Positions 27,965 to 63,995 of a stretch of DNA of 64,000 bases are shown piece after piece. Positions within the stretch are counted from its first letter, which is position 1. Each line of letters opens with the position of its first letter. The DNA is from a virus. Taxonomy: Duplodnaviria > Caudoviricetes. The stretch lies in IMG/VR virus record IMGVR_UViG_3300025769_000106, positions 190 to 64,189 of that record; one strand, written 5' to 3'. Made by a program: the position numbers and the translations under genes. A model generated the notes under the pieces. It saw nothing but the letters and a program-made list of their open reading frames with translations, was not told the DNA's origin and made no database searches.

Positions 27965-27972
27965 CTTCTTAC

Positions 27973-27982: not shown

Positions 27983-27987
27983 TGAAA

Positions 27988-31398: not shown

Positions 31399-31411
31399 TT
31401 TGAAACCCCCT

Positions 31412-33071: not shown

Positions 33072-33072
33072 T

Positions 33073-48360: not shown

Positions 48361-48503
48361 TGTATCTCATCTCCTTTGCTCTTGTTTTGAAAGTAAAAAG
48401 CGAGAACATGATTCATGAAAGAGGACTTCGATTCTCGGCCTCTTTCGCTTTCCATTTTCTTGAAAAGATCTTCTCGCATGACTACGGACACGTGTCGCCC
48501 CAT
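48357..48503 (-). CDS. Ribbon-helix-helix (CopG/MetJ-like) transcription regulator, 48 aa
   Basis: Below the ORF-track cutoff: MGRHVSVVMREDLFKKMESERGRESKSSFMNHVLAFYFQNKSKGDEIQ. Beta-strand followed by two helices with an SKS turn; its stop overlaps the next ATG. Confidence 0.7.
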   Translation of the reverse strand: MGRHVSVVMREDLFKKMESERGRESKSSFMNHVLAFYFQNKSKGDEIQ

Positions 48504-48524
48504 AAGAACCTCTCATGGTTCACA

Positions 48525-48536
48525 CCTATATGAGCG
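48525..48536 (-). promoter_or_regulatory. Promoter motif CGCTCATATAGG upstream of the RHH-GTPase operon
   Basis: TATA-like core 22 nt before ATG 48503; near-identical to the motif at 27953..27964. Confidence 0.55.
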
Positions 48537-48584
48537 TTGAGATGTCCAACAACATGAAATAATTTGGCTGATGTGGCACTACAT

Positions 48585-49097
48585 ATGAGCAATGCGCCAA
48601 CGATCCTTGTTGCAGTTCAAACATTAAGATCATTCAATCAAGCCTTATCGGGTATGTCTTCCGATCAGGAATCTGTTGCAAATTGGATTCGACGCTATGC
48701 TGAGTCCGATTCTCGAAGCAGCACATTCCCCAAGGATGCGGCAATTGGTTTGCTTTCGCACTTGCAAAACCCCGTTTTTGCAAATGCAAACCTTACCTCC
48801 GAGCAACAGGCTTGGTCTGGATTGATGTCATCTGCTGAACAAATGCTCCAAGAAGAGAACAATTGGATCGGACAAAAATCTGCACAGCAAAACGCAACGA
48901 CATTTACTCGGATGTTTGGAAGTGATTTGACATGGATTCAACTCTTCGCTCAGGCAAACAGCGTACCAAGCCATTGGACAAACGAATACATGATCAATTA
49001 TTTGATCACAGAATTAAGATCCTGTCAAGGGTCATCTGGAGCGGGAGCAATACCTCACACGGCTTTGGCTCCGAATGTTTCTCAAAACATCCCTTAA
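48585..49097 (+). CDS. Hypothetical protein; the only convincing plus-strand gene (~170 aa)
   Basis: Fills the gap between minus-strand genes; its stop shares the TTAA at 49094-49097 with the convergent MTase. Confidence 0.6.
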   Translation: MSNAPTILVAVQTLRSFNQALSGMSSDQESVANWIRRYAESDSRSSTFPKDAAIGLLSHLQNPVFANANLTSEQQAWSGLMSSAEQMLQEENNWIGQKSAQQNATTFTRMFGSDLTWIQLFAQANSVPSHWTNEYMINYLITELRSCQGSSGAGAIPHTALAPNVSQNIP

Positions 49098-50263
49098 CCC
49101 ATTTGATCCCAAACGTTTTGGAAAATGTCTTGATCGATGTTAGCCATGCCCATTAACTCCGACTTTTTCCCTCGAACAGCACCTTTACCACCGCTGGTTT
49201 CCTTTCTTTGAAGTTCATGGATGTCAAAGCCCATTTGTTTCATTGGGTCAACGATGGCGGGTTCAAATGAATTGAATACAACAGTTGGAAAGGCATTGTC
49301 TTTCAATGCCTCAATCATAGCAAGAGTCTTTCTTTGATCATCCATTGTGAAGAAATTTAATGCCCCTTCTTCCCCCAAATATGGAGGGTCGAGAAGAAAC
49401 ATATCGTTGGCGGGGTCAATTCCAATATCCGATGACAACTGCACATCCAATGGTCGATTGAGGTATTCCCAGTCTTGCATGACCTCCGCCCAAGGATCCA
49501 ACTTCCATCGACCTTTACCGCCCAAAAGCGTTTGCGGTCTAAACGTGTTCCCCTTTCCAGGCTTCAAACGATTTGGCTGATCCCCCATCATGTCAAAATA
49601 GGCAGACTCAAAACCTTGATCGATTGGCTTGTTTCCTGTAAATCGTATCGAACTATTCCATTTGTTGAAGTACGAAGGGGTTGAGGGAGAGTACCTAAGC
49701 AAACCGTTCATCGCCATATGTTGAAGAACCAAAAACAATTGATCTTTTCTTTGCCTTTCACTTTGGGCAATAACCCCAATTGCTTCTTTTTCACGGAGTT
49801 CATTGAATTCCTGTCGCAATTCATAGAATTTTGGACCCATAAAGAAAGGCTTTCCTCCCATATCATCAACCATACTTTGTGGGATTTTACCAAGATCCAT
49901 CATTTCGCCCGTTTGTTGATTGGGCATCATAACTGAATCACCTGCTTGATACGTGAATTCTTCTGGGTCAAATTCCAAAGATTCAGGATCTCGAATTAAG
50001 CGTTGATGAAATGATGCCAGATCAGGATTGATGTCCATGAGAACAGATCGCTCTGGCCTCATACCCAAAGAAAGACCCGATGCTCCGCCAAACGGTTCAA
50101 TGACTCGACGATTAGGGAACATTTGTTTCAACGCACGACCAATCCGCTGATACTGCGGATTTGCTTTGTTGCCTTGAATTTTAATCGCAGGAGGCAACGA
50201 TCCGCCCGTTTGCAAAGCCCTCAATGCTTTTTTGTATTGAGGATGCTCTTTGCGAATGTCCAT
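49094..50263 (-). CDS. Dam-like (D12 class) N6-adenine DNA methyltransferase
   Basis: KIQGNK, IEPFGGASG (motif I), MDINPDL, LLDPPY (motif IV); ATG at 50263 follows GGAGGTG. Confidence 0.8.
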   Translation of the reverse strand: MDIRKEHPQYKKALRALQTGGSLPPAIKIQGNKANPQYQRIGRALKQMFPNRRVIEPFGGASGLSLGMRPERSVLMDINPDLASFHQRLIRDPESLEFDPEEFTYQAGDSVMMPNQQTGEMMDLGKIPQSMVDDMGGKPFFMGPKFYELRQEFNELREKEAIGVIAQSERQRKDQLFLVLQHMAMNGLLRYSPSTPSYFNKWNSSIRFTGNKPIDQGFESAYFDMMGDQPNRLKPGKGNTFRPQTLLGGKGRWKLDPWAEVMQDWEYLNRPLDVQLSSDIGIDPANDMFLLDPPYLGEEGALNFFTMDDQRKTLAMIEALKDNAFPTVVFNSFEPAIVDPMKQMGFDIHELQRKETSGGKGAVRGKKSELMGMANIDQDIFQNVWDQMG

Positions 50264-50265
50264 GA

Positions 50266-51312
50266 TCACACCTCCTTGCATTCGTCCCATGCTGCTTTGA
50301 AAATATCCATTGATCGTCGGATAATGTCGCCAGTAAGTGCCGTATCCCACAATTCCCGTCCAGCAGTTGTCAAATCATTTGGATCAAAATACAATCCGTG
50401 AGTCCCAGTTGCTATGCCTCGATCCAACGCAAAGACTGAAAAATCGTTCCCTGCGGTCAAAGAAAGAGGGACAGGGATTCCATCAAAGGTGTAGCCACTT
50501 CGAGGATCCGTGTATTCGACATAGCGTTGACCAGGGCGATTAGGCTGGAAGTCGCTCCACCCAATAGGAATCTGCAAAAGCGGATCAACTGATCCTGAAA
50601 CACCGCCTCTCCTTGCTTCTCGCCACGGCATTCCAAAGTCCTGTCTCAAAGGCAGACGTTGTGAAGGTTTCCACTTTTGTTTTGGAGGCAATGTTGGATC
50701 TTTGATGTCATATACGGTGTACCCAAATCGAGGAGCCTCCCATGAACCCATTGCCATCATTGCATCTCCTGCTTGATTCCTTCCAAGCCTCATCTCTTCA
50801 TGCATACCCAATATGTCCATTGGGGTTCTCTCACCAGAATACAGTTGTTGCAACTCATCGGGAGTCAAATCCCCTGCTGTCCACATATGTGCCGTTCGAT
50901 TGGCATTCCCACGTGCATCCGTGTTCTTTTGTTTTCTCCCAAGCCAAGCATCCATCTGCTTATTTTCATTGACACGGAAAAATGGATTCCTCAAAGGAAG
51001 TGCATTTGCGATTCCAATTGTTTCTTGACCGCCTCGAAGGATGCTCAATACGCCTGTGTTTGGCCTAATTTGACCCGTGTGAAGGTTCAAACCTGGTGCG
51101 ATGTGAGGTACATTGATGTCGATATTGCGGAATGCTTCGACATTGTGAGGGCGACCCCATGTAAAACCGCCTTCTTTCAAATCCCTTAATTCACGGTTTT
51201 TCTTGCTCTCCAAGGGATAGGCGATCACGCCATCAGTTGATACTGTTCCCAAATCAACTCGATCACGCTCGTTTTTCAAAACGAGATCAAAGGCTTGATT
51301 GAATGCTGTCAT
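50266..51312 (-). CDS. Hypothetical protein with the leader motif at both N- and C-terminus
   Basis: Starts MTAFNQAFDLVLK|N and ends MDIFKAAWDECKEV. Confidence 0.65.
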   Translation of the reverse strand: MTAFNQAFDLVLKNERDRVDLGTVSTDGVIAYPLESKKNRELRDLKEGGFTWGRPHNVEAFRNIDINVPHIAPGLNLHTGQIRPNTGVLSILRGGQETIGIANALPLRNPFFRVNENKQMDAWLGRKQKNTDARGNANRTAHMWTAGDLTPDELQQLYSGERTPMDILGMHEEMRLGRNQAGDAMMAMGSWEAPRFGYTVYDIKDPTLPPKQKWKPSQRLPLRQDFGMPWREARRGGVSGSVDPLLQIPIGWSDFQPNRPGQRYVEYTDPRSGYTFDGIPVPLSLTAGNDFSVFALDRGIATGTHGLYFDPNDLTTAGRELWDTALTGDIIRRSMDIFKAAWDECKEV

Positions 51313-51324
51313 TTTATCCCTCCC

Positions 51325-52311
51325 TCAATGTTTTACATAGTCAATGTTTTGAACATTGGGGCGATAACACGCATCGCATCTTGCATCCAAGCACGTCTTT
51401 GCAGGGTTTGCTTCATCTGTTGTTAAGCAAACCTCTTCTGGTCTTCGAGAAAGACTCTTATCGGAAACAACACCTGTTGTCAACAATTGAGGGAATTCTT
51501 CCATCATATCGAGGTCTTTTTGATCCATCAATGGAACTCCCCTTTGCTCATTGAGATCATTGTCAAGTGTTTGATCAATATGGGGGATTGATAGCCTCAA
51601 TGCCAAATTCGGTGGCAACGATCCTCTTGCCCCCATGACTCTGCGAACAGATCCCCATTCTCTTGTTGGAATCCAGTTGAATATGTCTGGATTTTTCTCT
51701 GCGATTGCAATCATGTAGGCCAAATGTTCGGGTGAATCAACATCTCCCGAATCATGCCATCGGAAATCTCCGAACGGTTGAGGAGCAACAGAAGGAATTT
51801 TGTGAGCGAGGGCAGATGCCCAAAGAGAAGGATCGCGTTTCAAAGCAGCATAGTTCCGAAGTAAATGTCTTTGAACATTGTTAGCCCCATATGTGAATCC
51901 TATATTCCCTTTTGGATGAGCATAACAATTGTAGCATACTGATCCTGGAACCTCTCGAAGCCGTCCACCTACTTTGCACATATGTGTCGGAAGAGAATAT
52001 GTTTGATTCAACATTTTACCTGGTGTCGAAAAGCCCCCTCCCATCGCTGCTCTTGCTTCTTGTTCTGCCGTCCATTTGCTTTCAGGCATGAATGGAGCAA
52101 TGTCTCGCGCTGTCATGTCAAGATCTGCATCGATTTTGCGGCTACGCAACTTTGCAAATTCCTTTATTCCTCTTGGATCCTTTGTGAGGTAATTGAAAGT
52201 GGTTCGGTTATTTTTGGGAAAGGGTTCATCGCTCAATAAATCATCAAAGGTAAAATCATCAGGATCAAGGGCTTTGATGAGTAAATTCCATGCTTGATTA
52301 AACAGATTCAT
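51325..52311 (-). CDS. Gp88-like Cys-rich protein with leader
   Basis: Leader MNLFNQAWNLLIK|A; YSLP...C...VCYNCYA, FRWHDSGDV, WIPTRE, PPNLALRLS and C-terminal CLDARCDAC match the phage Gp88 family. Confidence 0.65.
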   Translation of the reverse strand: MNLFNQAWNLLIKALDPDDFTFDDLLSDEPFPKNNRTTFNYLTKDPRGIKEFAKLRSRKIDADLDMTARDIAPFMPESKWTAEQEARAAMGGGFSTPGKMLNQTYSLPTHMCKVGGRLREVPGSVCYNCYAHPKGNIGFTYGANNVQRHLLRNYAALKRDPSLWASALAHKIPSVAPQPFGDFRWHDSGDVDSPEHLAYMIAIAEKNPDIFNWIPTREWGSVRRVMGARGSLPPNLALRLSIPHIDQTLDNDLNEQRGVPLMDQKDLDMMEEFPQLLTTGVVSDKSLSRRPEEVCLTTDEANPAKTCLDARCDACYRPNVQNIDYVKH

Positions 52312-52696
52312 CTCGATCCCCCCTCACTTTACGGTGGAGGTTCTGCAATGTTTGCGTTGGTAATTCACTTGTCTCGCTTTTCTTAGGGCGTTTTTGTTCG
52401 CCTTCTTTCTTTCGAGGAACGCCTCTTGCACGATCCAGCAGGTTTTGAATTGAAGGGGGGAGGGGTTCGTCTTTTGCTTTTGGAGGAGATCCCATTTTGA
52501 AACCTGTTATGGCGGGTTTATTGAAATCCTTTGTTGCTACACGCTTTGGTGCGCCTCCCTTGCCGCTCATAACCTCATCAACAGCGGCCTCAATGTCCCG
52601 TTCCATATCAGGATTGGGTTTGTGAGGATAACGGCCTTTCCAAGGATTATCACCTTTCATGATCAGCCACGCTTTTTGAAACGTAGCATCCGCCAT
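52298..52696 (-). CDS. Small basic protein with leader
   Basis: MADATFQKAWLIMK|G; 132 aa, Lys/Pro-rich. Confidence 0.6.
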   Translation of the reverse strand: MADATFQKAWLIMKGDNPWKGRYPHKPNPDMERDIEAAVDEVMSGKGGAPKRVATKDFNKPAITGFKMGSPPKAKDEPLPPSIQNLLDRARGVPRKKEGEQKRPKKSETSELPTQTLQNLHRKVRGDRDESV

Positions 52697-52735
52697 AAGG
52701 ATCGGTAAATGGCCTTTGGATTTGAATATGTTGAT

Positions 52736-54094
52736 TCAATAACGCTCCAAAAGTGTTCTTTGTCTTGCGGATGGGCCAAAGGCAGAAGATGCGATTGCCC
52801 CTCCCACAGCAGGGACGACTACATTTCCGACTCCTGTATCAAACACTTTTTGTTGTTTTCCTGTTGTGTAAGTCCTATGAGTCAAACCATCGATTGGACT
52901 TGTATTGTATTTTGGATCAAACGTTTGAACTGCAAGCCATTCTTCGTCAGTCAAAGGTCGATTAAACATGAGCGTGGGACGATTATGGGTTTGACCTGAT
53001 GTGTGTCGATTCGCAGGGTATGAATGAGAAAATGATCTCCTCTGCTTGTTTCGAGGCCCCCTTGCATCATCCCAAACAGATCCACCGCCCCTCATTCCCA
53101 AAGCGTTGATTTCTGGACCCGTGTTCCCTTTACCAGGTACTGTCGCTCCACTTAAGGAAATTTGAGGTCCATCGCCCAGTTCTCTTGCGCCAGTTGGCGT
53201 CAATCGACCATGTTCCACCAAAGCACGAATCCATTCGTCAGTCAATCCTTTGTTTTCCTCCCATTCTCTTTGCAGATGGGGTGCAAAATCCAAGATTGAT
53301 CTGCTTGGCAATCGTCCAGCAACTGGCTTCTTTCGACGCGTTCGATCATAATGAGTTGGGTTCTTTGTCCATCCTTCGCCAATGATCATACGGTTTCGCG
53401 TTGATGGTGCGCCATAGTCAATTGCGTTCATCCGTGGATTTTGCTTTGGCATACCAAATGTGCCATCTCCTCGAAGCATCGCAAACACCTTATTGCGGAA
53501 ATCCCGATCTAATCCATCAAGCAATTTAGGATACTTGAGCAGGATTGGAATTGCTTCTTTTGCTTGTTCCATGTGCCATGAATTAAGGTCAATATCGGGA
53601 TGCTTCTGCATTTCTTGAGCCGTGTAAAACGAATTAAAAATTGGAGGGATCCCCTCCAATGCCCTTGCTTCTCGTTCTGCTGCACTTAACCCTGCATTTC
53701 CAGCAGAAGTCAATTTTTGACAAGGCGGTGAAAAACCAATGTGTGCCTTTCGTCCAGCGAGAGCATCGGCGTACAATTCGATTTGATCATCAGGATGTGC
53801 CATCCCTTGATCGATACCAAGCAGGGCGGTCATTGTATTTTCTTCATATGGCCTTCGGACTGTATTGATTGCGTCCCATGCATCAACACCCATGGCAGTT
53901 GGAATTCCTGCTCTGCGGAATCCAGATGAGGTTCCGCCAATTCCTGCGTGTTCGTGAATTGCGGCAGCATCATCTCGCATCTCCTGTTGAGGGAACATGA
54001 TGCGATTCAATCGCGCCATCTCTTCAAGATCTTCGGGCGTCATGGCTTTCCACAACATATCCGAGAAAGCGAACTCGAATAAAGCCTCACTCAA
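52736..54094 (-). CDS. Divergent C5-cytosine DNA methyltransferase-like protein with leader
   Basis: HAGIGG (I), FSPPCQ (IV), MEQA (VI-like), DYGAPSTRNR (VIII), RPLT...QTF (IX), VGNVV (X). TTG start after GGAGG gives MSEALFEFAFSDMLWK|A. Confidence 0.7.
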   Translation of the reverse strand: MSEALFEFAFSDMLWKAMTPEDLEEMARLNRIMFPQQEMRDDAAAIHEHAGIGGTSSGFRRAGIPTAMGVDAWDAINTVRRPYEENTMTALLGIDQGMAHPDDQIELYADALAGRKAHIGFSPPCQKLTSAGNAGLSAAEREARALEGIPPIFNSFYTAQEMQKHPDIDLNSWHMEQAKEAIPILLKYPKLLDGLDRDFRNKVFAMLRGDGTFGMPKQNPRMNAIDYGAPSTRNRMIIGEGWTKNPTHYDRTRRKKPVAGRLPSRSILDFAPHLQREWEENKGLTDEWIRALVEHGRLTPTGARELGDGPQISLSGATVPGKGNTGPEINALGMRGGGSVWDDARGPRNKQRRSFSHSYPANRHTSGQTHNRPTLMFNRPLTDEEWLAVQTFDPKYNTSPIDGLTHRTYTTGKQQKVFDTGVGNVVVPAVGGAIASSAFGPSARQRTLLERY

Positions 54095-54554
54095 ATAACC
54101 GCCTCCATCTGTTGGCATACGCTTCTCCAATATCAGGATACCTATTGCCACTTAACCGATCATTTCGTTGTAGCATTTGAACAAAATCCCACCATTCCAT
54201 CTCAGTCATCGATTTGTTGCCCATTGCAAAAAGTTGGATGTTTTTAGGATCAAGGCGATTGCCCATCATGATATGTCCATATTCCTCCGTGCCAAAATCA
54301 TAACCGTGATCCCAGGGATCGAGGACTTGGGTGTTTTCATCTGTGCTAAATCCAAGCAACGCAGGTCCTTCGGATTCAGGATGGTTATCAACCATGCGAT
54401 CCCACGCATAGGAGATGGCATCCTCATCATGAGGTGATCCAAAAGAATGCGGCTCAAATCCTTCTTCGAGGATCTTTTTTGCATTGGCAGCAGTTGTTCC
54501 GTGCCAATACTCAGGGTATCGGAATGCTTTCCAAACGAGGTCGAAGGCGGTCAT
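54087..54554 (-). CDS. ADP-ribosyltransferase-fold protein with leader
   Basis: MTAFDLVWK|A then YWHGTTAANAKKILEEGF...AISYA (HGT motif). Confidence 0.6.
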   Translation of the reverse strand: MTAFDLVWKAFRYPEYWHGTTAANAKKILEEGFEPHSFGSPHDEDAISYAWDRMVDNHPESEGPALLGFSTDENTQVLDPWDHGYDFGTEEYGHIMMGNRLDPKNIQLFAMGNKSMTEMEWWDFVQMLQRNDRLSGNRYPDIGEAYANRWRRLFE

Positions 54555-55315
54555 ATCCAATCATCCTCCGAATACCCCGCTTCAATAGCGGCCTTTCGTT
54601 GCCAATCCTCTAAATCGTTCCATTCGCCAAGCATTTCAACCATGCTATCATCGTAGCCGAGCGTGTCTATGAAATCATCATAATCAGCCGTTCTAAACAC
54701 ATCTCCATCCATCTCATAACTTGGTGGTTTTGGGTTGAACCTCTCAAGTGATTCGTTGTTTCTGTAAGCGATCAATCGGCTCAAGGCATCTTGTGCGTGT
54801 TTCAAACGCTTTGGAGCCGAATACAAATCGCCTGTTGTTCCTCCCAATCCCCCTCTGTACCTTTCTTCTTCGATGTATTGTTGCAACAACTCAATGACTC
54901 GATCATGCGATAAACGATCACCCATGTTATCTTCATCGATAATACCAACATTGGGGCTAAAAGGATCTTCGGTCATAGGAGGAATGTCTGCCGAAGTGTA
55001 GTTGCCTTCTTCATCCCTATCCGAATAGTCGCTTGGGTCAATTATGCTAATGCTCGGTATTGTCCTTCGCATTGGAGGAATGGATTTGTCTTGTGTATCT
55101 CTTCGCCCCCTACTATCGGAATAAGGAACGGCTGAACCATACAAAGCATAATGCAAAGCAATATCAGAATCGGTTGAATAATAACGTGGGTCATCTCTAA
55201 AATCACCACCGCTGTATAACATCTCATCATCAGTTATCACTCTTACTCGGCCACGATCCGAATAAACATCAATAGGGGCTTTAATCAATCCCCAAGCGGT
55301 GTCGAAGGCGGTCAA
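54551..55315 (-). CDS. Possible ADP-ribosyltransferase-fold acidic protein with leader
   Basis: TTG start, MTAFDTAWGLIK|A; LYSGG...YYSTDSDIALHYA. Confidence 0.5.
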   Translation of the reverse strand: MTAFDTAWGLIKAPIDVYSDRGRVRVITDDEMLYSGGDFRDDPRYYSTDSDIALHYALYGSAVPYSDSRGRRDTQDKSIPPMRRTIPSISIIDPSDYSDRDEEGNYTSADIPPMTEDPFSPNVGIIDEDNMGDRLSHDRVIELLQQYIEEERYRGGLGGTTGDLYSAPKRLKHAQDALSRLIAYRNNESLERFNPKPPSYEMDGDVFRTADYDDFIDTLGYDDSMVEMLGEWNDLEDWQRKAAIEAGYSEDDWI

Positions 55316-56181
55316 TTCCACACCGCCTTGAATCGATTCTTGGTTTCGTTGATCTTGTTCTTGGCTGCAACCCTCAACGTAGGATTCTTGATCTTGTGTG
55401 CCAATTTCCGAGCCTTCTTGAGATCGGAATACTTCACGCCACAGTCAATGCCACTCTTTTCGCACCACTTGACGAGATCCTCAGTAGCAAGGTTTGCCCC
55501 TGATCCTTCAACGAAAGGACATCCGCCCAATCCTCCAATGCTTGAATCAAATTCTCGAACACCCTTTGCATAGCCTGTGGCAACGTTGTCCATCAAATAC
55601 TTGCCATGATGGAGGTGCAATGCCAGATCGAGGGTGAAATCGTTAGCGGTATCGATTCCTGATGCAATGTCAAAAGGTTGAGCAGTTCCTTTCGTATCAC
55701 AAAGAACGATGGTCTTTCCAAATCGAAGACCATGCTGAACAGCGATGGCGAGATCCTCATGACTTGCATCAAAGGCTTCGGAGAGGTACACTCGAACAGA
55801 TTCTTTTGGAATTCCCTGGAGACACTTCTCATAATTGTCGAGGATCCGTTTCATTTTTAATCCATAATTGGCGATATTAAACGATTCGACGGGTGAGAAG
55901 AAAATGTTGTACCGATCCATTCCGCTATCCTTGGCTCGGTCGAGTCCACGTTGGTTCGGAACGAGTACGGAGAATCCCTCCTTATCGTCAAAGGCATTGC
56001 AGATCTCTTCTGCATCAGCCATGTTTGGAACCGCTTTAGGATGGACAAAGGATGCGATTTCGATGTGATTGAGGCCAGCGTCCCTCAACAACTGGATGAG
56101 ATGGATTTTATCATCGGTGGACGGGACGAACGGCAGGTTTTGTAGTCCATCACGTGGCCCAACCTCAAAAATACGAATCAT
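55312..56181 (-). CDS. Hydroxymethylglutaryl-CoA lyase (DRE-TIM metallolyase)
   Basis: MIRIFEVGPRDGLQN, SFVHPKAVPNMAD, LVPNQRG, LCDTKG, LHLHH, FDSSIGGLGGCPF...GNL-like ANLATEDL; ATG overlaps the upstream TGA; no leader. Confidence 0.88.
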   Translation of the reverse strand: MIRIFEVGPRDGLQNLPFVPSTDDKIHLIQLLRDAGLNHIEIASFVHPKAVPNMADAEEICNAFDDKEGFSVLVPNQRGLDRAKDSGMDRYNIFFSPVESFNIANYGLKMKRILDNYEKCLQGIPKESVRVYLSEAFDASHEDLAIAVQHGLRFGKTIVLCDTKGTAQPFDIASGIDTANDFTLDLALHLHHGKYLMDNVATGYAKGVREFDSSIGGLGGCPFVEGSGANLATEDLVKWCEKSGIDCGVKYSDLKKARKLAHKIKNPTLRVAAKNKINETKNRFKAVWN

Positions 56182-56345
56182 TCCTTTGGCCTCCTGTAAA
56201 TGCGGTTGCCAACTGCGAAATAATACCAAAGGTTCTGTCCTTTGTTCATGTTAGCAGCATAGAATGTTGCTTGCCCGTTGGTATCTCTTGCATCAACATA
56301 TTCTCTGCCTTTGAGCAAATCCCAAGCGGTTTCAAAGGCGGTCAT
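56178..56345 (-). CDS. 55-aa protein with leader
   Basis: MTAFETAWDLLK|GREYVDARDTNGQATFYAANMNKGQNLWYYFAVGNRIYRRPKE; GAGGTGG RBS. Confidence 0.6.
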   Translation of the reverse strand: MTAFETAWDLLKGREYVDARDTNGQATFYAANMNKGQNLWYYFAVGNRIYRRPKE

Positions 56346-56814
56346 TTTTCCACCTCTCAAGTGCTTCATTTGCTAATGGAGTCATAGCGGCTCGCCATCT
56401 ATTCCTTGTTGGTTGTTTAGGCAAAGGTAAATCGTCGGCATCCATAGCGGCATAATACTTGTCCTTCATTTCCTTTTCCCAATCCGCATAGGGTCGCCCC
56501 CTCCATATTTCTTGCGAATGTTTGGCGGGAACATCAAACGGATAATACCCATAACTCGAATACTCGTCATAATCACCCACGCCTTCTATGGTTCGTGGTA
56601 AATAATGGACTAAGGGGGCTTCATCGGGTTTTGCCGCACCGAGAGCATAAGCGAGAGCCGTAGCCATAGAATCGCTCGCCCAAACCCCTTTGCGATCTTT
56701 TTCAACCTGCCTTGCAGGTATCACGCCTTCTTGCATGGCTTGATCGTAATACTTGTCCTGTGTTCCTCGTAATGGTGCTTTCACCAAAGCCCAAGCGGTG
56801 TCGAAGGCGGTCAT
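56332..56814 (-). CDS. Possible ADP-ribosyltransferase-fold protein with leader
   Basis: MTAFDTAWALVK|A; LRGT...QEG...GVWASDSMATALAYA. Confidence 0.5.
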   Translation of the reverse strand: MTAFDTAWALVKAPLRGTQDKYYDQAMQEGVIPARQVEKDRKGVWASDSMATALAYALGAAKPDEAPLVHYLPRTIEGVGDYDEYSSYGYYPFDVPAKHSQEIWRGRPYADWEKEMKDKYYAAMDADDLPLPKQPTRNRWRAAMTPLANEALERWKNDRL

Positions 56815-58217
56815 TCATCATCACTCCAATTGATTTCGTCCGATGGGCTGTATCTGGATCCTTTCTTGGGAAGAAGGTTCAGCATTGCTTGAGTTGCAGT
56901 TGGATAACTGACTGGTCGAGGGAGCCTTGTCATCGGTTTTCCTTTTGGTTTGAACACATAACGGTCTTCGATCATCTCTGCTTGAGCATGATTTAACCAA
57001 GCCATGGCTTCGTTGTATCTGTCGCCATCAAGATCATATTCTGGATCCATCTCAATATATGGGCTTTTGAACCGATAACTGGGATAGTCTCGGAAGTATT
57101 TGTCAGGATTCTGTTCGTATTCTTGCCGAGTTAATGCGGTATGAGATGCTAAGAAACCTTCTGGATCTGCAAGCAATAAGTCAAGTGGTTCAACAATGCT
57201 CTCTGACAAATACTTCCGCGTGTGAATGTACGGATCTCTTTCTCGAACCGATTCTGCAAGAGATTCTCTCATTTGGATTGACCCAATGAGGTCTTGGATC
57301 TTAGGGGGGAGCATTGAATAACTTGTAGGAAGCGGTTCTTTTCCTGCCAATACCTTCTTTTTGTGCCTTTTTAATTCACTCAACAAAGGTTTTGTCAATC
57401 GTTTTGCATTCCAGATCCGATCAGCCTGTTTATCAGCGTATCCGTGCGTAAAGTAATCGTTATTCAATCCGCTGTCCATCACCCGATCCATTGCAGCATT
57501 TTCCAAATTTTGAAAAATTCTGTCAACCATGGTTCGATCTTTCATTCGACCTTGACGAGGAATGCTCAACAAACGTGGATTGGCTTTCTCTCGTTTTTCG
57601 TATTGAGATCCAACATCAGGATGATTCCTCAAACCTCTCATCACACCGCGATCTCTTTTGTTTGTACGAACAATCTCGTCTGTCGGACTGTCATGCACGA
57701 TGGGGGGGGCATTGTGTTGAAGCATATATGCAACCTTTTCTTGCATTGAATTCATTGCACTTGGACTCTCTGCACGGAATGAACGGTATCCGCTCATTTC
57801 ATTATTGTCCTGCGACCTGTGGCTATACCCGCTCCCTAACGAGCGATTTGAAATGAAACCATAATGCGGATCTGCAAGTGAATGGGCTTCGTGGCCTCCT
57901 TCATGGGATGCCGTGTTAGCAATCTCACGGATCATCGCTTCATCGATGAGATTTTCGTCGGAAAGTCCTATTCGATTAACTCGACGCTTCATCTCTGGTA
58001 AATTGATCCACATATTGTCAACGGTGGTTTGAAAATCCTTTTGAGAATGCTTCTTTCCCTCGTTATCCTGTTTGTCTCTGTACCCTTGGAATCTGTATCC
58101 TACATTGTTCCCCGAACGGATACCAGCCCAATTTCTCCCCAAACCTGGTTGGAGGAATTTCCCATCAAGAATAAAATCCATTTTGGCGAATGCAACATTG
58201 TGTGCATCGCCGCTCAT
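56811..58217 (-). CDS. HExxH zincin-like metallopeptidase-domain protein, 468 aa
   Basis: IREIANTASHEGGHEAH...QEKVAY; leader absent or degenerate (DAHNVAFAK). Confidence 0.55.
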   Translation of the reverse strand: MSGDAHNVAFAKMDFILDGKFLQPGLGRNWAGIRSGNNVGYRFQGYRDKQDNEGKKHSQKDFQTTVDNMWINLPEMKRRVNRIGLSDENLIDEAMIREIANTASHEGGHEAHSLADPHYGFISNRSLGSGYSHRSQDNNEMSGYRSFRAESPSAMNSMQEKVAYMLQHNAPPIVHDSPTDEIVRTNKRDRGVMRGLRNHPDVGSQYEKREKANPRLLSIPRQGRMKDRTMVDRIFQNLENAAMDRVMDSGLNNDYFTHGYADKQADRIWNAKRLTKPLLSELKRHKKKVLAGKEPLPTSYSMLPPKIQDLIGSIQMRESLAESVRERDPYIHTRKYLSESIVEPLDLLLADPEGFLASHTALTRQEYEQNPDKYFRDYPSYRFKSPYIEMDPEYDLDGDRYNEAMAWLNHAQAEMIEDRYVFKPKGKPMTRLPRPVSYPTATQAMLNLLPKKGSRYSPSDEINWSDDE

Positions 58218-58430
58218 GATGCGACATAGGGGTTTTTGCCTTCAACTTAACTCAAGTAGTGGCACTTGTGCGCTCGCTTATCGAGAATCATTGCTGAACA
58301 CAAGTATTGCTCATCTCGACCGATCCATTTAGACTCCACCCACCGCCCCGAAAAAGCAAAATGCGAATTCAGCGTCTTATCCATGAAGGACCACCGATCC
58401 ATGCGGATGGCGCACTCCGATATAAAATGA

Positions 58431-58541
58431 TCATTTGCGAAGCCATTCGTGATGCATCATGATTCCGTAAAAGAATCCGATGACCAAAAACAAAGCAATG
58501 GGGATCAAAATCTTATCAGCGTTATCGATTTTTTTCGCCAT
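58431..58541 (-). CDS. 36-aa single-TM protein
   Basis: MAKKIDNADKILIPIALFLVIGFFYGIMMHHEWLRK; overlaps the upstream small ORF. Confidence 0.45.
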   Translation of the reverse strand: MAKKIDNADKILIPIALFLVIGFFYGIMMHHEWLRK

Positions 58542-58686
58542 CTCTTAGTCCATCCCAACACAGTTGTTGCAATTCCTCTTCGCTGGCGAAGATCACCACA
58601 TTGCTGCCCAGATCATTGGTCCAGAACCACATCGTCAAGAATCCAGCGATAAATGAAAGCACGAACAGTACGATTAGGGTTGTCAT
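58522..58686 (-). CDS. 54-aa N-terminal TM protein
   Basis: MTTLIVLFVLSFIAGFLTMWFWTND...; ATGA-coupled to the zincin stop. Confidence 0.55.
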   Translation of the reverse strand: MTTLIVLFVLSFIAGFLTMWFWTNDLGSNVVIFASEEELQQLCWDGLRDGEKNR

Positions 58687-59414
58687 CCACTTAACCTCCC
58701 ACGTTGGTCATTTTGTAAGTCTCTTAGCCTAAACCTGCGACCATCTTCATGAAAATCACGATGGTTGTCAGCCATGGCTTCTTGATAGGTAAAGCCCTCC
58801 TCCATTCGCTTTCTGGGGAACTCTTGGATCATGTGTTTGTTTCGATCAAACTTTGACGATTCTCTTGAACCCTTTCGGGTTTGTCGAGGCGAAACCTTCC
58901 TGTTTTCATAATCGCTTGATGCGGTGTGCGCTCCAAACTCTTGATAATAGGGATAGGCAAAATAAGGATCTCCCATTTCTTCCTCTTCAACTCGTCGATT
59001 TTGCATCCCACGTCTTGGGAGAGGTTGATTCTCATCAAGTATTTGTTGGATAATTGGATCAAGAGCGATGTGCGTTCCCTCATGAAGGCCAATCGTTCCG
59101 ATTTGATCAATGATTCCTTCGATTTCATCATCACTCAAATCTCGATCAAACTTTTCATCTGGTGCAACTCCCGTAATTCTTGAGATAATTGGCTTCACAT
59201 TGATGGCCGAATACCAATCTAAGCCTTGTTTTGGGTTAGGTCGAACAAAGTATCCTGGTGCAGGGTACGCTTTATCATCAACAAACCCCATCGTTTTCCA
59301 ACCAGGATGATCGGTTCTTCGGGCTTGTTGTGGTTTTAGGTCATCACGCATTCGTCCGTGAACAAATGGAATCTCAAATTTCAGCAGATTCCATGTGGCG
59401 TCAAAAGCGGTCAA
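58683..59414 (-). CDS. HExxH zincin-like protein with leader
   Basis: MTAFDATWNLLK|F; IIDQIGTIGLHEGTHIALDP...QEFGAH. Confidence 0.6.
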   Translation of the reverse strand: MTAFDATWNLLKFEIPFVHGRMRDDLKPQQARRTDHPGWKTMGFVDDKAYPAPGYFVRPNPKQGLDWYSAINVKPIISRITGVAPDEKFDRDLSDDEIEGIIDQIGTIGLHEGTHIALDPIIQQILDENQPLPRRGMQNRRVEEEEMGDPYFAYPYYQEFGAHTASSDYENRKVSPRQTRKGSRESSKFDRNKHMIQEFPRKRMEEGFTYQEAMADNHRDFHEDGRRFRLRDLQNDQRGRLSG

Positions 59415-60625
59415 TCCAAAAGCCTCCTCTTGGTACTCTCTGGCATATTCGTTGTGGCGATAACCTCGATCTGGGGTAATTTATTGGCCTTTGGTTTCCT
59501 CATCCATGGGAATACATCGGCGTCAATGTCAAGTAAATCATCAATCAGTTCTCGATACGGATCCTTTTCGTCCCGTGGGAACAAATAATTGGAATAAATC
59601 GACGGCCCCGTGTGTTCACCCATCAAATCAACAACATCTCGTTGATCGTCATCGTATTGCATTCCCCAATCCTGTTTGACGTCGCCACCATATTCCACTT
59701 TCCGACTCATGTACGGAGGATCCCAATAAGCCAAATGACGTGGCGTCAAGAAATTAAACGCATCACGGAAGTCCTCATTGTAAATTTCAATGTCTTTCAT
59801 AGCATTTGACCATGGAGATATGTCCAAACGGCCAACATCACCAGGCATTATCCGATAATTTGGATGACCTGGTGGTTTTGCTGCTTTTCGATAGGCAATA
59901 CCCCCATATCGACCATCCGTGTACCAATTTTGTGGCGTTTGATCCCACGGCTTGAATGAAAACATTCCATCACGTTGAGTATTGTTTGCTCCAATCATCA
60001 ACTCCGCCAAGAATTTATTTTCGTCAGGAGTCAAAGGAGTCCCTTCAACATCACGGATCCGTCGAAGATAATTGATCGTATCAACCATTTCCGACAATTC
60101 TTCTGCACTTCTTGGCATTGAAACCTCTCCAAGCCCACCTCGAACTTGTTCCATGATGTTTGTGAGATCAGGATTGATGTCATTGTAAATTGCGTCCTTT
60201 CCTGCTCCGAATCCCATCAAAAAGGATCCGCTGCCGCCGAATAACTCCGCAGGTGCATGATCATGACGCACATCTTGAGCCAATGTCCTAAATCGAGGCA
60301 TCAAAGAGGTCTTGCCCCCGATCCAATTCATGAAAGTAGGCATCATTTCATCTTGACCTTGAAAACCTGCAAGGCTTGTCAAAGCATCGGATGTCCCTTC
60401 TCGATGCATTTGAGTCCATGGGACACCACGCGCTCTGCCTCCAGAGGATCCTTTTCCGCCCTCAAACGGCAATTGGGGCAGAGGGTTGGCCTTTTTGTCA
60501 TCAACGAAGCGATCATAGTATCCCAAAATCGATGGAAGGATCTCATCAATGTCATCGTACTCTTTTCCTTCCCAAATGATGCCTTTTTCGATATGATCCC
60601 ACACTTGATCGAAAGCACGGGTCAT
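59411..60625 (-). CDS. Dam-like N6-adenine DNA methyltransferase with leader
   Basis: MTRAFDQVWDHIEK|G; NWIGGKT, ELFGGSGS, YNDINPDL, YWDPPY. Confidence 0.82.
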   Translation of the reverse strand: MTRAFDQVWDHIEKGIIWEGKEYDDIDEILPSILGYYDRFVDDKKANPLPQLPFEGGKGSSGGRARGVPWTQMHREGTSDALTSLAGFQGQDEMMPTFMNWIGGKTSLMPRFRTLAQDVRHDHAPAELFGGSGSFLMGFGAGKDAIYNDINPDLTNIMEQVRGGLGEVSMPRSAEELSEMVDTINYLRRIRDVEGTPLTPDENKFLAELMIGANNTQRDGMFSFKPWDQTPQNWYTDGRYGGIAYRKAAKPPGHPNYRIMPGDVGRLDISPWSNAMKDIEIYNEDFRDAFNFLTPRHLAYWDPPYMSRKVEYGGDVKQDWGMQYDDDQRDVVDLMGEHTGPSIYSNYLFPRDEKDPYRELIDDLLDIDADVFPWMRKPKANKLPQIEVIATTNMPESTKRRLLD

Positions 60626-60675
60626 GATCAGCGCAAAGACAAATAAGGCTTAATTCCTTCGTTAGAAAGAGAGGC

Positions 60676-60681
60676 TTTATA
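60676..60681 (+). promoter_or_regulatory. TATA box (TTTATA) with purine-rich BRE-like upstream sequence, divergent from the 60625 promoter
   Basis: gaaagagaggcTTTATA ends ~24 nt before the 16-bp stem at 60705. Confidence 0.5.
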
Positions 60682-60704
60682 CCCTTTTTCAGCAACCGAG
60701 AATT

Positions 60705-60786
60705 TGGCGGTGGATTGAGACTCGGCTCCAAAGTGGTTCTTGGGCTTCTATCACTTCACCTTTTTTCCTTTCTCGGTTCACCGCCA
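60705..60786 (+). ncRNA. Candidate small structured RNA (~82 nt)
   Basis: 60705-60720 pairs with 60771-60786 over 16 bp. Three pairs are G-U wobbles that work only on the plus strand. No ORF; TATA box upstream. Confidence 0.45.
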
Positions 60787-61097
60787 CCCCCTGCAAAAAA
60801 AAAACGCATGAAATGGCCTTATTTTTGCCTCGTCGAGGTTCCGACGAGATCACAACAAAAAAATTCTTTCCAGTTTTTTTTCAAGACTTGAATCCACACG
60901 ACTCAATACTTCGCAGGTTGGGACGAATCCCTCCTGAAAAGCCGAACAACCCGTATTTTTGCATAAGAAACAACGTATTACGCTGTGCAGGGGTGGTCGT
61001 GCGGTGGCCTTGATGACCAGAAGCAAAGACGCTTGCCACGGTTGATGCTATCAATCCGCTATATATCTAACCTTGCCAGCCTTGTCAAGGTTGTGGA

Positions 61098-62138
61098 TCA
61101 CAATTCAACGTCGTGCCGAGCATCCCTAAACGAAATTGAAGATCCAATCATTCGTCCTTTCTTTGATGATTCTTGCAATTCGGAGATCAGTTGTCGGATG
61201 TTTTGATCCAGATCGGTGGAGTATTGTCGGTATCGCTTTGGAACCCTCTTCTGTTCTCGAATAGTATCCTCAAGAATCCTGTCGATTCGATCCTGCGTCA
61301 ACAATTTGCGTTCATCATTTTGAAACGGTCGCTGAGAAACATAATCGTAAATGAGTCCATCCACATCAACATTCCCTGATCCGAGTCGATGGCCCTCCTC
61401 ACCAATCTGTTCATCGCTTAAATCACCTTGTTGATGAAAATCATCTTCGTATCCTCTAATTTCTTGATCGGCAAGACCTTGCTGAGTCATACTTCTTGTT
61501 GGACTCCAATCATCAAACATTGATATGAAATCTTCATCATCATACGGGGTGTCCTTCAAATCGAGAATATGCCCCATGCGTTGATCCATTGGCTTCACAA
61601 AAGGAGAATAATGTCGCAAATCACGCTGCACCAAATCCAAAGTATCACCTGAACTGAATACGGAGTAAGGAACAATCGGTTCGGAATTCCCCATCACCTT
61701 GCTCCAAAATGCTTCAATTGGCGCACGTGTGATTCCTTCGGGTGCTGAATACTCTTCCTGCCGCCGCACATGATCTGGTTGACCAGATTTAGGGATTGGT
61801 ACTTTAGCAACATATTGCGAAGGACGATATTGATCCAAAGCAGGGATTGAATGAACAATATGTTCGTACCCTCTGCCAATATCAACGGGAACTTTACCCA
61901 ACGGTTCGCCCTCGGAAGGATGATAGTCATAATCAACATAACCCTCATCATCAAGAATGGGAGCGTACATTTCACCATCATTCCGATCAACATAACGCCC
62001 ATCCTCAAGTTCACGGTACAGCCCTTCGTTTGACCCAGGGAAACCACCATGGCGATCCATAAGTTGTTTGAAACGAGCATACGCCGCTTCATCGACTGTT
62101 GCCTTTATCAAATCCCAAGACTGATCAAATACGCTCAC
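61098..62138 (-). CDS. Divergent protein-kinase-like protein with leader
   Basis: MSVFDQSWDLIK|A; IGRGYEHIVH (Gly loop), YVAKVP, GDL...GNV, LIYDY. Confidence 0.45.
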   Translation of the reverse strand: MSVFDQSWDLIKATVDEAAYARFKQLMDRHGGFPGSNEGLYRELEDGRYVDRNDGEMYAPILDDEGYVDYDYHPSEGEPLGKVPVDIGRGYEHIVHSIPALDQYRPSQYVAKVPIPKSGQPDHVRRQEEYSAPEGITRAPIEAFWSKVMGNSEPIVPYSVFSSGDTLDLVQRDLRHYSPFVKPMDQRMGHILDLKDTPYDDEDFISMFDDWSPTRSMTQQGLADQEIRGYEDDFHQQGDLSDEQIGEEGHRLGSGNVDVDGLIYDYVSQRPFQNDERKLLTQDRIDRILEDTIREQKRVPKRYRQYSTDLDQNIRQLISELQESSKKGRMIGSSISFRDARHDVEL

Positions 62139-62662
62139 AGGTATCCTCTCCGTCGAAGAATATCCGCTTGCTGATCAAATGGAATCCCCTCGATCAACAT
62201 TGCTCCTGCCTCATGGGTATTTGTGCTTGGCTGAAAAGCACTCAATTGCGCTTGCTCATATGGATCATTCATCCAATCCTCATGTGCCTCTGATCGAAGA
62301 GGCGGATCAATTGCTGCGTGTCCCTGTTCGTGGACAATGGTATCGACAATCCGTTGAATCATCTCGTCTTCATTCATCGGTATAGATCCTATGTCATGTT
62401 CACGTACTCCAAAAACATCTCTCTTTGAGTTCAAGCCCCAGTCTTTATTGTGAAAATAAGGGTTGGCTAAATTGTAAGCCGTGTAGTATGTATCGCCTTC
62501 CGCATTTTTTTGACCGTAGTCGAGAAGATCAGGGCGAGGTTTCCCTCCTGGCTCAACTGTTGGCAAAACATATTGATACGGGGTGTATGTCGCCACCGTC
62601 GAATCATTTGGATCAAGGTAAAAGGATTTCATGAAATCCCAAGACTGATCGAATACGCTCAT
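62110..62662 (-). repeat. 29-nt direct repeat (27/29 identical) at the starts of two adjacent genes: 62110..62138 and 62634..62662
   Basis: (G/A)TGAGCGTATT(T/C)GATCAGTCTTGGGATTT on the coding strand. Confidence 0.85.
62135..62662 (-). CDS. HExxH zincin-like protein with leader
   Basis: MSVFDQSWDFMK|S; IQRIVDTIVHEQGHAAIDP...HEAGAM. Confidence 0.6.
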   Translation of the reverse strand: MSVFDQSWDFMKSFYLDPNDSTVATYTPYQYVLPTVEPGGKPRPDLLDYGQKNAEGDTYYTAYNLANPYFHNKDWGLNSKRDVFGVREHDIGSIPMNEDEMIQRIVDTIVHEQGHAAIDPPLRSEAHEDWMNDPYEQAQLSAFQPSTNTHEAGAMLIEGIPFDQQADILRRRGYL

Positions 62663-63201
62663 TCAACCCGCTCCCTCATGCCTCTCCATTCGGAATCATC
62701 ATCAATCTCTCGACCTTGGTTCTTTCTCCAAAGACCTTCGCCCCCATCGGAAAGGTTGCTCGATGGTTTGATCCGATAACCCAACTCTCGAACGAGATCG
62801 TAAATGGCTTGAGCCATTCCCTTTCTTCGATAAGGTTCGGCAATGTACGGGCTAACTCCCACGATTGATCTGTTGGGAGGGTATTGCATTGCAAATTCTG
62901 GATCACTTGGCTCATGATCTTCATGATAATGAACGTTTGAATTTCCAATGTGTCGGCCAATGGTTTCATCAAAACCAGCCTCCTGATTTGGAGGGAAGTC
63001 TATGTCCACGTTGAAATCATGTGAATATGAAGGAGTTGAGATCACCATTGGATACCGCTGTTGATTATCGGGGTCAACGAAATCTGCAACGTGCATCCGC
63101 TTCTCTTGCTCCGCATCCTCTGCCGAATACATGAACGGCTTGATCGAATCAAGATCCAAAGGAGCCTTCATGATCTCCCATGCGGAATCAAATGCGCTCA
63201 T
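62659..63201 (-). CDS. GNAT-family acetyltransferase-like protein with leader
   Basis: MSAFDSAWEIMK|A; YIAEPYRRKGMAQAIY (motif A) and SSNLSDGGEGLW. Confidence 0.65.
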   Translation of the reverse strand: MSAFDSAWEIMKAPLDLDSIKPFMYSAEDAEQEKRMHVADFVDPDNQQRYPMVISTPSYSHDFNVDIDFPPNQEAGFDETIGRHIGNSNVHYHEDHEPSDPEFAMQYPPNRSIVGVSPYIAEPYRRKGMAQAIYDLVRELGYRIKPSSNLSDGGEGLWRKNQGREIDDDSEWRGMRERVE

Positions 63202-63995
63202 GATTTCCTCTCCAGATCTGGATTCGGCATCATCCGTACATCATTGTCAAGAATCAACTCATCACCGTGCTGATTCATCATTGTCGAAAGCATTTCGAGA
63301 TATTCCATCAATTTCTCACGGTCTTTACCTTGCAAGTTGCCTTCTTCAATCCTGTATTGATTGCCCTCTTCCATTGCAACATTGCCTTTGCCATCGCCTC
63401 TTCGAGCGTAAAGATCTCCGTGTGGACCTTGAAGCCACCATTCTCTTCGCTGAGATAATGGATCGCCCCAAACACGTTTATCCTCTCTTCCCGCAATGAT
63501 CTCCGAACTATCAGGTGTATCAACACGTTCTGCGATGATACCTTCGGGTCCAACAATCGTAGCAGGTGTGTGGCTAAAACCATCATCGTGATCATAAATC
63601 GCCTCATAACTGAGTTGATCGTCATCACTCTCATCGCCTTCATCGATTGGAACCGCCATTAGGGGAGGGATTTGATCCATGAACTGTTTAGCCTTACGCT
63701 TCGGATTGAAGTACGAATACTCTCGACGCTTTTGGTGCAACGATCCTGGGCGGATAGGCATCTTGATCACCATGTCCCAAGCAATCTCGAACGGATCCTC
63801 GCTTGCCGTGAAATCCAAATGATTGACATCACCAAATTGAGTCCCTTTGCAAGAATCGTATTCCAACTTCGCTTGTTGCAATTCATCAAGACATTCCCTG
63901 ACCGCATCAAACGGTTTAGGATCCATTCGGTGCATCACGGCTGATGCATCTGGATCGAGATAAGTGGAGAGTAAATGTTCGGCATATTGAGTCAA
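63198..63995 (-). CDS. Hypothetical protein with internal leader motif (5' end at window edge, start uncertain)
   Basis: Internal EDPFEIAWDMVIK|M. TTG at 63995 overlaps a TGA, but the frame is also open to the window end. Confidence 0.55.
   Translation of the reverse strand: MTQYAEHLLSTYLDPDASAVMHRMDPKPFDAVRECLDELQQAKLEYDSCKGTQFGDVNHLDFTASEDPFEIAWDMVIKMPIRPGSLHQKRREYSYFNPKRKAKQFMDQIPPLMAVPIDEGDESDDDQLSYEAIYDHDDGFSHTPATIVGPEGIIAERVDTPDSSEIIAGREDKRVWGDPLSQRREWWLQGPHGDLYARRGDGKGNVAMEEGNQYRIEEGNLQGKDREKLMEYLEMLSTMMNQHGDELILDNDVRMMPNPDLERKS

Follow-up and report, generated by a model that had tools for sequence, protein, structure and literature searches.

We investigated the window, a 64,000-nt stretch of viral DNA (IMG/VR record IMGVR_UViG_3300025769_000106, a 64,189-bp contig minus 189 bases) whose long open reading frames (ORFs) all lie on the minus strand, and found that otherwise unrelated genes of an array near its far end begin with one short N-terminal leader peptide. 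Of the readings considered, an archaeal-virus equivalent of the T-even capsid-targeting leader accounts best for the system, with the end of the leader also being the junction at which cargo is exchanged. Selection acts on the amino acids of the leader, which is therefore more than a DNA or RNA element; it recurs in related viruses on the strand of the structural genes, and a prohead protease is encoded in the same window. Beyond what the initial annotation of this DNA had described, the leader-cargo junction is a recombination breakpoint at which cassettes are exchanged, and the leader also occurs internally, at the module junctions of fused proteins.

The initial annotation had named 14 genes with the shared leader; all 14 starts and peptides are present as it wrote them, and 12 open with the form M-x-x-F-[DENQ]-x-[ASTV]-W-x-Φ-Φ-K. 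These 12 starts (51312, 52311, 52696, 55315, 56345, 56814, 59414, 60625, 62138, 62662, 63201 and 39378) lie three to five codons ahead of a match to the regular expression F[DENQ]xx[WF]xx[LIVMF]x{0,1}K. The other two fit less well, with a shortened copy (MTAFDLVWK) at start 54554 and a divergent one (..LFEFAFSDMLWK, TTG start) at 54094 that scores below 6 bits with the leader hidden Markov model (HMM) described below. A GGAGG-like stretch lies upstream of each of the 14 starts. The shared leader is far above chance expectation: the DNA pattern TTYRAYNNNNNNTGGNNNNTNNTNAAR, encoding F-[DN]-x-x-W-x-Φ-Φ-K, matches the minus strand of the window 6 times and the plus strand not at all, against 0.01 expected from 100 shuffles. 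Upon inspection, we found extra copies as well: an internal one (FEIAWDMVIK, 63762–63791) within ORF 63198–63995, a leader-like one (MDIFKAAWDECK, 50269–50310) two codons ahead of the stop of gene 50266–51312, and a decayed one at the start of 56811–58217, to whose N-terminus an L096 homologue with an intact leader was aligned. Array genes without a leader include the HMGL-like gene 55312–56229 and a 54-aa ORF (58522–58686).

Constraint on the peptide was assessed across 329 distinct complete leader proteins, which blastp at 1e-5, run on the parts past the K, groups into at least 181 cargo families, including 121 singletons. Their leader logo is M-[TNS]-[AP]-F-[DEN]-x-A-W-x-[LVI]-[LVM]-K, and past the K conservation is lost at once. 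Among 335 pairs of members of the same cargo family, differences at codon 7 (Ala) were synonymous in 186 cases and non-synonymous in 15, and those at codons 6, 9 and 13 were mostly non-synonymous; conserved and variable positions alternate with helical periodicity, marking out one face. Synonymous sites at F (TTC/TTT 52/48) and K (60/40) vary freely with the residues constant. Among 398 distinct motif contexts, 355 have a start codon 2–7 codons upstream, and the 43 without one are internal copies that keep the peptide. When homologues of gene 62659–63201 were retrieved through their cargo, all four (37–98% identity) had kept the leader. The conclusion of amino-acid selection rests on the synonymous variation, the helical periodicity and the 43 internal copies without a start codon; conservation at the DNA or RNA level alone, an outcome that the initial annotation had considered, is contradicted by the synonymous variation and by those internal copies.

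For cargo turnover, we compared the window with L081, a relative locus whose contig encodes a major capsid protein (MCP) 98% identical to that of the window. Of nine homology breakpoints (going into the gene), six are no more than 5 nt away from the final leader codon and five no more than 2 nt, a clustering at the K codon that none of 100,000 random placements equalled (p<1e-5). L081 has other cargo behind the same leader at 4–5 slots: cargo differs at the 58683–59414 site, and that of 54551–55315 is replaced directly past the leader. In addition, L081 shows one extra leader-flanked cassette and the loss of one cassette between two leaders, and it joins the N-terminal part and internal leader of 63198–63995 directly to the cargo of the next cassette. 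Metagenome contigs agree with this picture. In contigs of four runs from other samples, the 54551–55315 cargo is swapped for 471 other letters between 54554 and 55274; in one contig gene 58683–59414 is gone, with a joint from 58681 to 59410; and loose ends occur at 55280, 56310, 56346 and 63188/63201. Thus, the proposal that cargo varies between relatives is borne out even for viruses with nearly identical MCPs, and the breakpoints at the leader end directly show a conserved coding stretch driving the modular exchange of genes at viral hotspots.

Array genes mostly consist of one module, with a minority of fusions that have internal leaders. Among G002–G005, four whole relatives chosen by their MCP, in-frame leader-cargo-leader-cargo fusions are represented by a G002 ORF with leaders at residues 19 and 267 and by a G004 ORF with two internal leaders. 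A 777-aa protein of G002 and G003 consists of a homologue of 50266–51312, an internal leader and a Dam methylase homologue, which in the window are two ORFs in different frames. Internal copies have a recurring context of approximately [A/K/R]-S-x-[D/E]-x ahead of the F (TASEDPF, YASDDSF, RSDDAF), which suggests that the internal form of the motif may be longer than the N-terminal form.

The leader is widespread among related viruses. An IMG/VR scan with a start-anchored leader pattern returned at least 120 stretches with matches, and many of these stretches, among the matches listed, have 3–8 leader matches clustered on one strand. Five relatives picked by MCP and not by leader gave 2, 7, 10, 14 and 10 unanchored pattern matches, on the coding strand only, with none on the opposite strand and none for a reversed-pattern control. 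A leader HMM of 13 columns, built from 246 leader peptides and applied with a cut-off of at least 8 bits, matched 11 times in the window and 12, 13, 18 and 14 times in G002–G005, and 65 of these 68 matches are on the structural-gene strand. The HMM had no matches in the haloviruses HVTV-1 and HCTV-1, and the leader pattern was found in none of five known archaeal virus records. A search of 596 Gb of cellular genomes with one frequent DNA form of the leader gave only 5 matches, single and in unrelated bacteria, which is about the level estimated for chance.

In G002, which is complete, a long block of genes in one direction begins with the array and continues through conserved unannotated genes to the large terminase subunit (TerL), portal, protease, MCP and tail genes. 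The opposite-strand block of G002 has no leader HMM matches, and 3 of the 10 ORFs scanned there match Pfam (chaperonin, PD-(D/E)XK nuclease and ERCC4 nuclease). A second clade, with an MCP about 60% identical, has a leader gene with varying cargo downstream of the MCP in 9 of 10 loci, at a distance of 1.5–1.8 kb in 7. Two expectations of the initial annotation therefore held up: the HMM scan, with none in the G002 opposite-strand block, limits the leader to accessory and head-module genes, and in cellular genomes it does not exceed chance level. The opposite-strand block itself (27284–37870, plus strand) contains a 3528-aa ORF as well as the group II chaperonin.

The virus is most probably a magrovirus-like archaeal tailed virus, as judged by its HK97-type MCP, portal, protease and TerL, by the similarity of the MCP to those of haloarchaeal tailed viruses and by relatives of about 100 kb. 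A tblastn search with the MCP against 50,697 phage records found relatives solely in 11 archaeal-virus records; the MCP is 33% identical to those of the Haloarcula viruses HVTV-1 and HCTV-1/5, and 3 further records are methanogen-associated viruses. Philosof et al. (PMC5434244) give the same level for magroviruses, and on these grounds the archaeal identity assigned by the initial annotation is supported. IMG/VR holds 251 MCP relatives on contigs of up to 107 kb (relatives of 90–107 kb). The head module of the window, including the conserved leader gene that adjoins TerL, is as follows.

36485 to 37921, minus strand: large terminase subunit TerL (phrog_38, E value 4.2e-74).
33468 to 35267, minus strand: portal protein (phrog_18178, E value 1.8e-60; Pfam Phage_portal).
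26532 to 27932, minus strand: prohead serine protease S78 (residues ~29–178) with a scaffold-like tail of ~290 aa (Peptidase_S78, E value 6.3e-10; PHROG head maturation protease).
25353 to 26507, minus strand: HK97-type MCP (phrog_24667, E value 7.3e-51).
37927 to 39378, minus strand: leader gene (MTESFDHAWRSVEK), 483 aa, directly upstream of TerL, conserved.

The last of these products is Arg/Pro-rich and then acidic, Lys-rich and of low complexity, and in its G002 and G003 homologues a short N-terminal extension precedes the leader; as a speculation, such a protein would suit a DNA-associated internal protein.

We consider it plausible, if slightly short of probable, that the leader is a capsid-targeting tag removed by the protease, like the signal of T4 internal proteins. 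The leader would be an amphipathic helix of 12–14 residues with F4, A7, W8 and L11 on one face and a Φ-Φ-K ending, serving as a common address tag on the fast-changing accessory proteins of magrovirus-like archaeal tailed viruses. Its likeliest destination would be the procapsid, where the helix may bind some part of the head under assembly, the protease-scaffold protein being the leading candidate. Cleavage past the K by the S78 prohead protease would follow, and the released enzymes (DNA methyltransferases, a protein with an ADP-ribosyltransferase (ART) fold, zincin-like proteins and many unannotated proteins) would enter the next host with the DNA. Since all cassettes share the leader coding sequence of about 36 nt, recombination there swaps, deletes, inserts and sometimes fuses cargo modules. 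The more ambitious proposal, that this 36-nt stretch is both a procapsid address tag and a recombination handle shuffling more than 180 families of injected effectors, independently of the T-even locus, strikes us as a serious possibility that is on balance unlikely.

Several observations are consistent with the procapsid as destination. The array opens the block that leads into TerL, portal, protease and MCP, one conserved leader gene adjoins TerL, and the prohead protease presumed by the initial annotation is identified by its Peptidase_S78 match. The protease-scaffold protein contains six Φ-Φ-K sites; across 32 aligned sequences the K is invariant in four of them (FLLK23 at the N-terminus, ILK179 at the end of the protease domain, and VIK326 and VIK346 in the scaffold), with more variable surroundings. 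The N-terminal 35 residues of the MCP end in DLLK35 followed by ADSP, and this point aligns with the K|AD past the N-terminal extension, about 100 aa long, of HVTV-1 and HCTV-1. One study (PMC8569155) places K or R at P1 of the delta-domain cleavage sites in the phi12 capsid protein and SaPIbov5 Ccm, cuts that its authors had assumed to be made by the phi12 protease. Co-folding of the MCP and the protease-scaffold protein with a leader protein cut to its N-terminal 35 residues, each given as an alignment, yielded a score of 0.00 against a mark of 0.32 with no controls, which speaks neither for nor against binding.

A number of points weigh against capsid targeting. Docking, cleavage, packaging and injection are steps that we infer, and virion data cannot be transferred from the closest cultured relatives because these lack the leader. 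The Φ-Φ-K match is statistically weak, being a short tripeptide that also has 3 to 6 sites in the portal and in a 1136-aa protein encoded between portal and protease, and the MCP N-terminus is conserved throughout, which weakens its own match. The residue after the K is mixed (A 20%, M 15%, E 13%, S 9%). Leader codons differ from those of the gene bodies (Thr-6 ACC 91% vs 20%, Leu-11 CTC 44% vs 9%, Ala-7 GCC 1% vs 18%), and part of the conservation would therefore reflect shared DNA ancestry, or gene conversion and homogenisation. Finally, the leader set was partly collected by the regular expression, with F, W and K fixed, and in the IMG/VR scan codon 7 was required to be GCN in one or more leaders of each locus.

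An unlikely but substantial alternative is that the leader is a docking helix for a viral or host hub other than the capsid, for instance a chaperonin, a factor of replication or transcription or a host target complex, which would gather the effectors in the infected cell. On general grounds the one-face pattern F-x-x-x-W-x-x-L suits a short helix in a hydrophobic cleft, the relatives encode a group II chaperonin, and internal copies are also kept, so that a free N-terminus is not needed. However, no candidate partner was found, and the location of the genes favours the head: they share the strand of the packaging and head genes, with none in the G002 opposite-strand block, and the second clade has its leader-gene slot just downstream of the MCP. 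A hub would also leave unexplained the Φ-Φ-K ending that recurs in head proteins.

It is improbable that the conserved stretch is mainly a nucleic-acid element, either a recombination handle or a translation start, with a peptide that has no role. The six breakpoints near the last leader codon, the joints and loose ends at the same places in contigs of other samples and the biased leader codons would all be expected of such an element. By contrast, it does not account for the synonymous variation at F, K and Ala-7 with constant residues, for the helical periodicity of the variable positions or for the 43 of 398 contexts that keep the peptide without a start codon, and Rfam had no matches in the window. 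Recombination at the leader is real, but it is more readily understood as the outcome of having a conserved coding stretch there.

Focusing more specifically on cargo, the array contains the following genes.

49094 to 50350, minus strand: D12 (Dam-type) DNA methyltransferase with no leader of its own (Pfam PF02086, E value 5.8e-9).
50266 to 51312, minus strand: leader gene (MTAFNQAFDLVLK), 348 aa, no family match, with a C-terminal leader-like copy.
51325 to 52311, minus strand: leader gene (MNLFNQAWNLLIK) with a GP88 domain (Pfam PF17338, E value 8.8e-22, residues 96–315).
52298 to 52696, minus strand: leader gene (MADATFQKAWLIMK), 132 aa, no family match (leader HMM 9.4 bits).
52736 to 54094, minus strand: C5 DNA methyltransferase with a divergent leader-like N-terminus (..LFEFAFSDMLWK), conserved in L081 (Pfam PF00145, E value 4.3e-6).
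54087 to 54554, minus strand: shortened-leader gene whose cargo has a predicted ADP-ribosyltransferase-type fold, KptA/Tpt1-like (AlphaFold2 pLDDT 81.2 and Foldseek).
54551 to 55315, minus strand: leader gene (TTG start, MTAFDTAWGLIK), 254 aa, of a 12-member cargo family.
55312 to 56229, minus strand: HMGL-like gene without a leader (Pfam PF00682, E value 2.6e-22).
56178 to 56345, minus strand: leader gene (MTAFETAWDLLK), 55 aa, with the top leader HMM score in the window (27.6 bits).
56332 to 56814, minus strand: leader gene (MTAFDTAWALVK), 160 aa, aligning with the ART-fold family of 54087–54554.
56811 to 58217, minus strand: decayed-leader gene encoding a 468-aa protein that has an HExxH motif.
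58683 to 59414, minus strand: leader gene (TTG start, MTAFDATWNLLK), 243 aa, with a zincin-like HExxH...E motif.
59411 to 60625, minus strand: leader gene (MTRAFDQVWDHIEK), D12 DNA methyltransferase (Pfam PF02086, E value 3.1e-15), matching the regular expression but with only 6.2 bits from the leader HMM.
61098 to 62138, minus strand: leader gene (GTG start, MSVFDQSWDLIK), 346 aa, no family match (viral hypothetical clusters only in Atlas).
62135 to 62662, minus strand: leader gene (MSVFDQSWDFMK), 175 aa, with an invariant HExxH and E.
62659 to 63201, minus strand: leader gene (MSAFDSAWEIMK), 180 aa, of a 13-member cargo family.
63198 to 63995, minus strand: ORF truncated at the contig end; its internal leader lies ~69 residues into the readable part.

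The cargo labels of the initial annotation fared unevenly. Pfam matches uphold the D12 and C5 methyltransferases and GP88, and a structure model the ART fold; the zincin label has the HExxH...E motif only, GNAT a single weak profile match (E value 0.33) and the kinase-like label an Atlas lead only. Nor do these Pfam domains begin right after the K as had been stated, with D12 starting at about residue 101 and GP88 at about residue 96. In the model of 54087–54554, the top PDB matches are KptA/Tpt1 and other ADP-ribosyltransferase folds (best E value 5e-4, TM 0.43), and the leader is a helix at residues 3–10, predicted at lower confidence. For 62135–62662, the putative zincin label rests on an HExxH and a downstream E that are invariant across 7 aligned sequences; the Atlas lead to M85/M91 peptidases scored 0.89, under the tool's 0.9 line, a family profile had no matches among PDB sequences, and an AlphaFold2 model from the 7 sequences (pLDDT 44.6) was too poor for a fold search. 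The 468-aa protein returned 1 locus when used as a query for related loci. PHROGs gave no family for any of the nine array proteins queried. More broadly, at least 135 of 146 family representatives had no Pfam match, and the 11 Pfam families seen have one member each (NUDIX, NUDIX_4, GP88, DUF6321, D12 methyltransferase, DnaJ zinc domain, GRXCR1-2_C, HTH_38, Anti-TRAP, DUF5872 and LIM).

This diversity bears on two further explanations, both very improbable. A secretion or membrane-targeting signal would explain an N-terminal position common to unrelated proteins, but the initial annotation was right to set Sec and Tat aside: the leader has 12 residues, an acidic, polar face and a net acidic charge, its logo has neither a hydrophobic core of about 10 residues nor a twin-arginine motif, DNA methyltransferases are among its cargo, and it occurs in cellular genomes only at chance level. 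Descent of the genes from a single ancestor, with divergence everywhere but at the N-termini, would suit the neighbouring cassettes that are related (the 54087–54554 family and the HExxH family), but not the 181 cargo families at blastp 1e-5 nor the unrelated Pfam families found past the same leader (D12 and C5 methyltransferases, GP88, NUDIX, HTH_38 and the DnaJ zinc domain). A role in PCNA binding or as a membrane anchor was set aside, judging by the motif alone.

Among known systems, the T-even internal proteins (Ip1-3 and relatives, and Alt) show a comparable arrangement. As described in the literature on them (PMC9026906, PMC3012670, PMC12373910), an N-terminal capsid-targeting sequence is the only part shared by otherwise unrelated proteins that vary between related phages at hotspots; the prohead protease gp21 removes it; and the gp21 motif, which also lies in scaffold, shell and gp21 near the N-terminus, is used to cut the scaffold into pieces and to trim shell proteins. 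In T-even phages the protease motif ends the leader and recurs in head proteins; Φ-Φ-K, which is a putative cleavage site here, may be its equivalent. T-even cargo serves anti-defence or host takeover. The present system differs in its archaeal host, in an S78 protease fused to the scaffold, in internal leader copies at module junctions, in the pattern of the leader and in its ending in K, whereas the T4 motif ends in Glu (L/I-x-E, PMC9026906), a comparison made by description only. Its scale is also much larger than in T4, with no fewer than 181 cargo families and 11–18 HMM matches in each genome. T4 has proven packaging and cleavage, which are putative here.

Polyvalent proteins (Iyer et al. 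2017) offer a second comparison. According to that work (PMC5512222), about 35% are phage-encoded and judged likely to be packaged in capsids, and zincin-like peptidases were suggested to process the multidomain polypeptides; adenine methyltransferase, ART and zincin-like domains and a portal-terminase neighbourhood are common to both systems, and the likeness in domain types counts in favour of capsid packaging here. By comparison, polyvalent proteins hold 2–15 effector domains per polypeptide, whereas leader genes here are mostly separate, with some two- or three-module fusions. In CdiA-CT and Rhs tips, a short conserved motif borders the constant part and the variable domain, and recombination swaps the variable part; the constant part here is the leader only, it is N-terminal, and the carrier is viral. 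Cargo-loading peptides of encapsulins direct proteins into an HK97-fold shell and are usually C-terminal and not removed, and in phage P1 a short peptide or N-terminal region of the Dar proteins reportedly directs them into an HK97-fold shell. No prior description of this leader was found in the literature on magroviruses or on archaeal-virus capsid targeting, including the main texts of PMC5434244, PMC11706807 and PMC10160649, with supplementary tables outside the search; this agrees with the statement in the initial annotation that none was known, and the concept itself is known from T-even internal proteins.

In practical terms, the leader is a sequence handle that retrieves hundreds of candidate host-takeover or anti-defence proteins from viruses of uncultured, abundant marine archaea. 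If it is a capsid-loading tag, co-injection of proteins with a removable address peptide would be a recurrent strategy, not specific to T4 and also present in archaeal viruses, and a 12-residue tag might be usable to load foreign proteins into an HK97-type shell. If it is both tag and handle, these abundant marine viruses would possess a plug-and-play platform for effector delivery.

Some features of the array stand apart from the leader. The D12 methyltransferase gene 49094–50350 is in a different frame from 50266–51312 and lies just past the C-terminal leader-like copy of the latter. At 48360–49094 there is no minus-strand ORF and the only sizeable ORF is on the plus strand (48564–49097, 177 aa), with the DNA 83% conserved in L081. 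About 470 nt without a long ORF (60626–61097) interrupt the tightly packed array, perhaps as the site of a promoter or as what is left of a decayed cassette. The HMGL-like gene, of the HMG-CoA lyase family, is also found inside the arrays of L081 (10229–11110) and G002 (23068–23961), leaderless in all three, and may be an auxiliary metabolic gene. A small protein in which a zinc-ribbon motif (FGDCPVC.G) comes directly after a leader-like motif occurs in L011, L025, L036, L042, the G005 piece L237 and G004 (57379), four of these loci being the MCP ±10 kb; nothing in the window clearly corresponds to it. In G002 C1, a GGTTCAGG-type repeat is present at both ends, inside the TerL-adjacent gene, and the record was therefore cut within a repeat.

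Among the remaining genes of the window, no small terminase subunit was recognised in the two genes upstream of TerL, the second of which (39383–40303, minus strand) encodes a low-complexity, Gln/Thr/Ala-rich product. ARAGORN found no tRNA in the window, and a scan of it for bacterial-type promoters and terminators was at shuffle level, with bacterial models that are not applicable to archaea. The site between portal and protease is the usual slot of a minor head or ejection protein, and in the window it is occupied by the 1136-aa protein (27988–31398, minus strand; conserved in G002 with 1154 aa), for which there were no Pfam or PHROG matches and no MuF-type family; in its last third we noticed by eye a possible nucleotidyltransferase (ligase-like) motif. 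At the distal end of the structural block (269–12714, minus strand) lie two giant ORFs of 2510 and 1635 aa.

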